Of a stretch of 64,000 nt of DNA, positions 30,401 through 33,400 are shown in pieces. Each line of letters opens with the position of its first letter. Within the stretch, counting starts at the first letter, position 1. A program made the position numbers and the translations under genes. Location of the stretch: assembly GCF_032062105.1 (NCBI RefSeq), contig NW_026932728.1, positions 124,001-188,000 on the forward strand, in the 5' to 3' direction. This DNA is from Saccostrea cucullata (Eukaryota). Below the pieces are notes generated by a model. That model had not been told where the DNA came from, ran no database searches, and saw only the letters and a program-made list of their open reading frames with translations.

Positions 30401-33400
30401 AGTTTTGGTTCGATTTCAATATAACTTGGCACACAAGTAGACTACACTAAGATACATAATTCTGTGCATCGGTTTTTGATTTCGATGAATGATGTTGCCG
30501 AGGTTACTAAAAATAGAAATTTTTGTGATATTGTTTCAAAATGCTACTCCTCCTACAATTTTTCGATTTCAATATAACTTGGCACACAAGTAGACTACAC
30601 TAAGATTAATTCTGTGCATCTGTTTTTGATTTCGATGAACGGTGTTGCCATGGTTACTAAAAATAGAAATTTTTGTGAAATTGTTTCAAAATGCTACTCC
30701 TCCTACAGTTTTGGTTCGATTTCAATATAACTTGGCACACAAGTAGACTACACTAAGATGCATAATTCTGTGCATCGGTTTTTGATTTCGATGAATGATG
30801 TTGCCGAGGTTACTAAAAATAGAAATTTTTGTGAAATTGTTTCAAAATGCTACTCCTCCTACAATTTTGGTCCTATTTCAATATAACTTGGCACACAAGT
30901 AGACTACACTAAGATACATAATTCTGTGCATCTGTTTTTAATTTCGATGAACGGTGTTGCCTTGGTTGCTAAAAATAGAAATTTTTGTGAAATTGTTTCA
31001 AAATGCTACTCCTCGTACAGTTTTAGTCCGATTTTAATATAACTTGGCACACAAGTAGACTACATTAAGATACATAATTCTGTGCATCGGTTGTTGAATT
31101 CAATGAACGGTGTTGCCATGGTTACTAAGAATAGAAATTTTTGTGAAATTGTTTCAAAATGCTACTCCTCCTACAGTTTTAGTTCGATTTCAATATAACT
31201 TGGCACACAAGTAGACTATACTAAGATACATAATTCTGTGCATCGGTTTTTATTTTGATGAGTGGCAAGGATCATTTTTCTATTTATTGCTGATTTAAAG
31301 TCTCAATTCCAAACTTCTACTTTTCTCTTCCTTTGTTTTAAGTATAAACCAGTAGAGCTACAGTCTCGACAGAGACTTCTGGTTTTTTCATTTGTGAGCA
31401 AAACAATAGAATAGCATTGTACTGTAACACAAGAGAAAATTGCTTGATTTTTAGCTCTAGATGAGAAAAATTCAAAAAATATTAAAATAAATACACAATA
31501 TTATATTTTTTTTTTATTTTGGCAATACAAAAAGAAAGAATGATGTTGACACGTTGCTCTTCTGTTAAATGTCCTCTGTAGAAAATTTGATTATATAGAT
31601 GAAGTAATCTCTGACAGAATGTTTTGACCCAGAGTGATATATTTTTACCCCCTCTCCCTCCTCTCACACCCCCTCCCCCAAACACGCCGCACAAAGCACA
31701 CATCTTAACATGTTAATATACATGTATATGCTCTCTCTCAAGTTCAATATCTATCTGCCAAATTTATATCTTTTAAATTGAAATATTTTGCACTGCTAAC
31801 TCACCACTGGGTACTATGATGAAGGAGATAAGATTCTAGAATGAAATACATATGAATATTATTAACCCATAATCATTATGATAAAATTTGTAAACATTAC
31901 TTAAAAAAAAATGAGTACTTGTAAATGAAGTTTTCAATTATAAGCCTGTGCAGTAGTTAAGATTGGATTTCTTGAAATACTGATGAGACTATGCATGCTT
32001 TTACTTAGTTTTGCTTCCCTTCCCCCCTGTAAGAGGTGGGTCATTTGTGTTGTCTTTGGCTAGTAAGACTTAAAGGAGAAAAAAGCGTATTAAGATGAGT
32101 CAGAGAGCATGGGGATTAATAACAGGAACATTTATGGCAGGAACCTTACTAATACTTGTATCAAACTGATTTGAAATTTAGAAGTGGTGGATCAAATAAG
32201 AGTTGGAAATACCCAATTACATGGTGGACAAGTGATTTACATGACTTTTGCCATTAAATAAATACTTTTGATACTCTCTATTAATGAGGCTATACATTGG
32301 ATTTCAGTATGAAGTATCAATATTTTTGTTCTCTATCTTACAGAACAAAGGCCCTCAAGTAAAGCCCAGAAACCAGAGGTAAGCAGAATCTGCACTCAGA
32401 ACAGCTGATAGACATGTTGTATATTGTAGGACCTGATAGACATGTATATTGTAGGACGGTACTGATAGACATGTTGTATATTGTAGGACGGTACTGATAG
32501 ACATGTTGTATATTGTAGGACCTAGATAAGTATGCCAAACAGCTGATAGACATGTTGTATATTGTAGGACGGTACTGATAGACATGTTGTATATTGTAAG
32601 ACCTAGATAAGTACGCCAAACAGCTGATAGACATGTTGTATATTGTAGGACGGTACTGATACAGCTGAGCTGATAGACATGTTGTATATTGTAGGACCTT
32701 GATAAGTACGCCAAACAGCTGATAGACATGTTGTATATTGTAGGACCTTGACATGTATGCCAAACAGCTGATAGACATGTTGTATATTGTAGGACCTTGA
32801 TAGGTATGCCAAACAGCTAATAGACATGTTGTATATTGTAGGACATTACAGCTGATAGACATATTGTATATTGTAGGACATTACAGCTGATAGACATGTA
32901 TATTTTAGGATATTACAGCTGATAGACATGTTGTATATTGTAGGACCTTGATAAGTATGCCAAACAGCTGATAGACATGTTGTATATTGTAGGACATTAC
33001 AGCTGATAGACATGTTGTATATTGTAGGACCTTGATAAGTACGCCAAACAGCTGATAGACATGTTGTATATTGTAGGACCTTGACAAGTATGCCAAACAG
33101 CTGATAGACATGTTGTATATTGTAGGACCTTACACTGATAGACATGTTGTATATTGTAGGACCTGGACAAGTATGCCAAACAGCTGATAGACATGTTGTA
33201 TATTGTAAGACCTAGATAAGTACGCCAAACAGCTGATAGACATGTTGTATATTGTCCTGAGGAGGAGAAGCTGATAGACATGTTCCCTGAGGAGGAGAAG
33301 GGCTCCTCAGATGAGGAGGAGGAAGTTGAGGAGGAGGTCACAAGGGACGGAACTCTTCTCGCCTCAGAACCCGCCAGACCTTTGTACGTATCAGGTTTTC

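Follow-up and report, generated by a model that had tools for sequence, protein, structure and literature searches.

The window, a 64,000-nucleotide stretch of a Saccostrea cucullata contig (NW_026932728.1), contains a gene for a kinase of the misshapen/MAP4K4 type, in which the intron before one coding exon is taken up almost wholly by a tandem array of copies of that intron's own acceptor and the first codons of the exon that follows. In the window haplotype the terminal copy is further interrupted by an 87-nt insertion peculiar to it. The features of the affected region, all on the forward strand, are collected in Table 1.

Table 1. Features at the array-bearing intron and exon (positions in the window).
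Feature	Position	Strand	Remarks
Upstream coding exon	32344..32378	+	35 nt; part of the exon chain; RNA joints depart here; donor at 32379
Sole non-repeat part of the intron, with donor	32379..32399	+	21 nt
Acceptor-plus-exon-head copies upstream of the real acceptor	32400..33159	+	17 decoy TAG acceptors, all of which lead to stops
Array segment with TAA variant	32575..32646	+	identical over 72 nt to 33184-33255
Likely authentic exon head	33160..33197	+	only copy with CTG as second codon; frame matches exon tail
87-nt insertion peculiar to the window	33198..33284	+	placement slides by 16 nt
Candidate newborn intron, 87 nt	33205..33291	+	donor GTAAGA, acceptor GAG; implied by the P0002 model
Exon tail: acidic stretch and conserved motif	33285..33383	+	donor 33384; RNA joint to 35601

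The host gene and its protein models

A single window exon retrieves oyster proteins named mig-15, MAP4K4 and misshapen, and Pfam annotation places kinase and CNH domains (PF00069, PF00780) in the matched proteins; the first-pass annotation's description of the host as a conserved kinase is thereby borne out. The product of the window gene is 94–99% identical to four other oyster proteins. One database protein, P0002, which carries the NCBI label Saccostrea cucullata and has an N-terminal kinase and a C-terminal CNH domain by Pfam, is encoded exactly by the window: it is reproduced letter for letter from 34 exons in a chain of 3072 nt with zero frameshifts. As this exact match includes two oddities found in no relative, P0002 very likely derives from this genome. 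Compared to the misshapen/MAP4K4/TNIK/mig-15 kinases, it has the same domains and differs by LYI in place of FPE and by one extra residue in the kinase domain. LYI is present in both P0002 and P0125, while 4/4 other oyster proteins have FP at this position (alignment A1). The extra residue corresponds to three additional bases at the end of a 65-nt kinase exon (22170-22185) and occurs in one of 91 full-length proteins, namely P0002.

The gene was found once in the assembly, and searches by DNA and by protein recovered neither a second copy nor a haplotig. An old pseudogene can be rejected, because GT/GC-AG ends are retained in all other introns and no frameshift interrupts the chain. Skipping of the whole array-bearing exon is likewise ruled out, since the two ends of this exon differ in phase (0 at the start, 2 at the end). 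Its designation as exon 18 holds unless an alternative 81-nt exon at 28623 is counted, in which case it becomes coding exon 19.

Elsewhere in the window, satellites with periods of 437 nt and 156 nt occupy intronic positions 16284-18592 and 29750-31261, respectively, and an intronless frame of 581 codons (434-2179), in which 75 nt are tandemly duplicated in frame at 1798-1951, resembles by eye what we take to be a B-box/TRIM-type gene. The intron following the array-bearing exon contains short dispersed elements of very high copy number at 33813-33876 and 34467-34678 (depth in thousands). An alternative 15-nt microexon with AG and GT ends lies at 34045-34059; its letters sit between 33383 and 35601 in 13 RNA reads, and five residues matching it are present in P0004 and P0121.

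Anatomy of the acceptor array

The tandem array covers the region 32400-33255, with TRF scores of up to 619. We resolved 32418-33255 into 21 units: 10 have the full 49 nt, another 10 are shortened to 25-46 nt, and the last is truncated. The full unit joins 13 nt of intron end to 36 nt of exon head, in accord with the earlier proposal of an acceptor plus the first 12 codons, and the array fills all of the intron but 21 nt, in line with the earlier statement that it makes up nearly the whole of it. Genome matches to the array unit, in a search that skipped very common words, all fall at this locus (10/10), ruling out a dispersed element as its source. Along with its TAG, each unit supplies a weak pyrimidine stretch and a CTGAT of exonic origin. 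One such CTGAT stands 22 nt before the real acceptor, where it fits the branch-point consensus, and we take it to be the predicted branch point. The exon head is preceded by TAG in 18 of the 21 units and by TAA in two (33197 and 32588), the last unit being cut off. Thus, the TAA that the first-pass annotation assigned to the last copy is indeed there (33197), but is not peculiar to it, being present mid-array too. CTT forms are the commonest second codon among the window decoys. From 18/18 TAG acceptors unspliced reading reaches a stop, which upholds the claim that no copy reads through. The donor is separated from the first array acceptor by 51 nt; among the 31 other introns, the shortest measures 116 nt.

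A unit spanning the intron–exon boundary, splice signals in many but not all units, and variable unit length are the characteristics of a 'mirage' minisatellite, and this array is one of the acceptor-side kind. Judged from the window alone, it would have 'consumed' the intron. An 86-nt exact match between copies 333 nt apart within the array indicates that long-range copying is ordinary for it. A source for 33184-33255 was identified at another place inside the array, in the segment with the TAA variant, which is likely to have been the template of the 87-nt insertion. With respect to the genomic context in relatives, a metagenome scan based on P0141 confirmed 0 loci among 588 pattern hits.

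The terminal exon and its insertion

Because the copy at 33160 is the sole one with CTG as second codon, CTG is the form in most RNA reads, and its frame matches the exon tail, we regard it as the likely authentic exon head on these sequence features. CTG alleles are found in the RNA of X16, X17 and X18 and in an X6 contig. The tail is 75% purine over its first 60 nt. Between the two, the insertion contributes an in-frame TAA, a copy of an array unit and a short duplicated piece of the exon; its length is a multiple of 3, and a usable donor lies at its beginning. A second, 30-nt-period duplication noted earlier is also present, 33256-33270 being identical to 33286-33300. With the 33160 acceptor the exon would be 224 nt long in the window haplotype and 137 nt without the insertion, and reading through from 33160 meets a stop after 19 codons.

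The reads of other animals exit the window sequence at 33181 and re-enter at 33269, skipping exactly 87 nt with non-canonical ends, and 16 letters fit on either side of this skip. An uninterrupted exon is found in an X1 DNA contig, and the Logan protein P0141 reads straight through the insertion site. A search for shorter proteins gave 7 matches, none of which has the window's odd end.

DNA and RNA from other oysters

We listed 24 sequencing runs, each sharing at most 0.15 of words, so that none comes from the source animal, and examined seven of them (X1, X4, X6, X9, X16, X17 and X18); the insertion was seen in none of the seven. X1, X4, X6 and X9 are contigs, which drop rare variants, so that absence from them proves little; X16, X17 and X18 are raw RNA runs of one study, read to 44-47%.

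At the DNA level, X1 shows a depth of ~270-1400 in the covered array bins as compared to ~100-150 in the flanks, and zero depth at 33200-33259. One of its contigs, of 160 nt, runs from an array unit straight into the intact exon (33098 to 33269, with 44 letters on the short side). Hence, the intact terminal copy that the first-pass annotation named as counting against its own account does exist, in DNA from another individual. Array-type pieces occur in X1, X4 and X9, the last of which bears a second species label and includes a 76-nt contig in which two units meet head to tail; the array is thus common to two species labels. X1 and X4 further show variant units and a go-back joint, and among the pieces listed none covers the whole array. 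The depth of X1, X4 and X9 in the bin 33260-33319 is accounted for arithmetically by pieces starting at or beyond 33269. The window's odd junction was not seen in the contigs of these three runs, which as contigs cannot prove its absence.

In RNA, 67 raw reads link the upstream exon with a single copy (28 in X16, 21 in X17 and 18 in X18), and 64 lead from a copy straight to 33269 (21, 20 and 23, respectively). An X6 contig agrees with this single-copy mRNA, and regular splicing is therefore undisturbed in all four of these runs. The idea of an exon remodelled across the species is not supported, the ordinary exon being present in both the RNA and the DNA of other animals. As read from the tool's placements and the listed changes, the first codons of the working exon are CTG-GAC or CTG-GAT in X16 and X17, CTT-GAT in X18 and CTT-GAC in X1. 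Exchange between decoy and exon would explain this variation, as would plain synonymous polymorphism, and we offer it as a hint. Further into the exon, at 33321, an extra GAA codon in many reads of other animals (9/27, 26/42 and 18/33) and in contigs of X1, X4 and X6 is a length variation in the acidic run.

The stops behind all the TAG acceptors, together with the sharing of the array between two species labels, raise the thought that the decoys constitute a regulated poison-splicing device tuning the dose of the kinase. We consider this very improbable. Run-on transcripts into the array were not seen, the depth being zero over 32600-32899 in X18 and over 32622-32857 in X16, and the few array reads of X17 do not rise above its intronic background, a sign that the X17 animal may also carry the array. 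Moreover, the units vary freely among animals, and comparable arrays lie at four other junctions of the gene.

Splice paths open to the window haplotype

Splice sites were scored with a small matrix trained on this gene's own sites. By this measure the TAG acceptors of the array score 6.6, above 12/31 ordinary acceptors. The P0002 model leads from an exon at 33160-33204 across an 87-nt GT-AG intron to re-entry at 33292, keeping the length of the protein. This path, like the two-step canonical paths, retains the exon-head peptide, contrary to the earlier claim that the frame survives only with its loss. Taken at face value, it would mean that a real insertion is removed by splicing as a newborn intron, giving a full-length kinase with FPE changed to LYI: an intron being born, in which the mirage replaced the ancestral intron body and a TAA-unit copy within the exon came to be removed. 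LYI is present in P0002 and P0125, and P0002 is exactly rebuilt with this intron; the TAA variant provides the best donor of its class (4.4, versus 1.8 in the TAG copies), a CTGAT precedes the acceptor at 33292 by 18 nt, the altered residues fall in a poorly conserved spot, and the scheme agrees with the model set out in the available part of PMC3087553. If true, the length and branch point of the upstream intron would now come from exon-derived copies, and the population would hold the before and after states of a mirage-driven intron gain.

Nevertheless, we judge such a birth unlikely. The acceptor at 33292 scores -1.1, lower than 31/31 ordinary acceptors, among which GAG occurs in none; the donor after 33204 exceeds only 5/32 real donors; and at 87 nt the intron would be shorter than all 31 others, so that its splice signals lie outside the range of the gene's real introns. 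A brute-force enumeration yielded 1535 open canonical paths, 6 of which give the P0002 peptide, five other array copies being able to act as first exon with a weaker donor; the existence of a single open path is accordingly no evidence, and 0/1535 restore the first 16 residues of the orthologue. A gene predictor that patches a gap would also be expected to arrive at the length of the orthologues, and the TAA variant was already present mid-array. Finally, no RNA joint supports the intron: the joint 33204-33292 is absent among those listed for X16-X18, which comprise every joint of X18 and all but 10 weaker ones of the three runs, and these animals show the insertion-free allele. The LYI model of P0002 is thus likely to be a gene-predictor patch.

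Somewhat less probable still is that the insertion is real and that splicing moves to one of the downstream AGs (33262, 33271 or 33292), at the cost of most of the exon-head peptide. The first-pass annotation held that only 33262 and 33271 keep the frame, whereas 14 in-frame open AGs are available from 33262 on. The best is 33262, which scores 0.8, has a TGTATATTGT stretch upstream and lies 122 nt from the donor, and P0055 lacks the exon-head peptide in alignment A1. However, 33262 surpasses just 2/31 real acceptors and 33271 none, to be set against the 12/31 surpassed by the TAG copies 100 nt upstream; four positions of the segment that would be lost are conserved in 24-28 of 29 homologues; and X18, an animal without the insertion, has 0 joints from the upstream exon to these AGs.

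Other junction-spanning repeats in the gene

Of 19 merged tandem arrays in the gene, five lie across a splice junction (28284, 32405, 35618, 57536 and 59748), an enrichment that is significant when unit lengths are randomised (P 0.002) and under that scheme only, as randomising array lengths gives P 0.21. A second acceptor-side array, at 57503-57855, has a 72-nt unit with an open frame and an intact last copy; a two-codon shortening relative to P0003 is common to its four recent copies, and turnover may have changed the exon there. The remaining three repeats are on the donor side, at 35618-36096 (79-nt unit), 28284-28385 (30 nt) and 59748-59799 (22 nt), and in each the working donor is the first copy.

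A probable tolerated mirage with a private defect

Taking these observations together, we consider it probable that the locus is a tolerated mirage with a private defect in its last copy, the latter being either a broken allele or an assembly error. Among the three options offered by the first-pass annotation, a defective allele or assembly is thus the best. We envisage that a seed duplication took in the intron end with the exon across the junction via a short ATGTT match, and that slippage and templated copying then enlarged and scrambled the array. Its tolerance may be accounted for by exon definition together with nonsense-mediated decay, both established. The last copy would win as the only one with the purine-rich tail and a donor at the normal exon distance (137 nt), while use of an upstream decoy would lead to a stop and removal by nonsense-mediated decay. 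In window coordinates, the exons from 16/17 upstream TAG decoys would exceed 300 nt, where the gene's maximum is 241 nt, and all 17 would contain stops. In the window haplotype the 33160 acceptor would yield the 224-nt exon, and with its stop after 19 codons most transcripts would be degraded.

As to whether the defect is a real broken allele or an assembly error, we regard the two as about equally probable. Long-range templated copying fits a real mutation, and a consensus error is compatible with it as well. In favour of a real allele are the 86-nt exact long-range copy in the array, the frameshift-free P0002 chain and 8 HSP70 matches with a nearly full profile and no stop, in a search that ranks intact copies first; two further matches in this profile search, on C8140, are partial. 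An error is favoured by there being two odd lesions, namely the insertion and the extra kinase residue, with no other decay and no second witness, and by the lack of an assembled second allele of the kinase gene although several HSP70-family genes occur on two contigs. Homozygosity of the source animal would make a null unlikely and would raise the probability of an error or of a rescue path. Bivalves are described as carrying a high genetic load in the portion of PMC5804265 at hand.

Relation to known systems and significance

The literature collection that we searched contained no report of a mirage in a mollusc, and no papers on an oyster minisatellite at a splice site or on misshapen/MAP4K4 in oysters. 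The accessible parts of PMC3087553 and PMC3902484 describe amphioxus mirages in the globins BflGb6 (acceptor-side) and BflGb9, Adh3, troponin C and PGBD5; PMC3087553 also reports somatic instability of the Adh3 mirage and, for the globins, presents mirage-driven intron gain as a hypothetical model. As far as these accounts extend, the oyster array is like those of amphioxus in tandemly repeating the 3' end of an intron with the 5' part of an exon, in giving normal mRNA via the last copy, in having splice signals in many but not all units and in its variable unit length. It differs in its oyster host, its ~20 copies, the mere 21 nt of unique intron left, and a last copy broken in the window by the 87-nt insertion. 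In the 37-bp VNTR of human F7 intron 7, going by the section of PMC1557585 consulted, identical pseudo sites are likewise silent and the authentic site is used, but that repeat is on the donor side with the first copy used, whereas the oyster array is on the acceptor side with the last copy used. The candidate intron would resemble those described, in the excerpts to hand, for the potato RdRp (PMC4974935) and human internal tandem repeats (PMC2812944), in which a junction-spanning duplication activates a GTAAG donor. The potato intron, however, has 53 DNA and 106 RNA reads crossing its new junctions and a normal CAG acceptor that it inherited (PMC4974935, same excerpt), as opposed to none and a weak exonic GAG, respectively, for the oyster candidate.

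A tolerated mirage in this gene extends a known repeat type to oysters, and offers a natural setting for testing how splicing picks one acceptor out of 18 that are nearly identical. A warning also follows for this genome's database protein, whose LYI in place of FPE is likely to be a patch made by the prediction. Were the 87-nt intron truly spliced, it would represent a rare, still-segregating intron gain for which both the source sequence and the ancestral allele are available.
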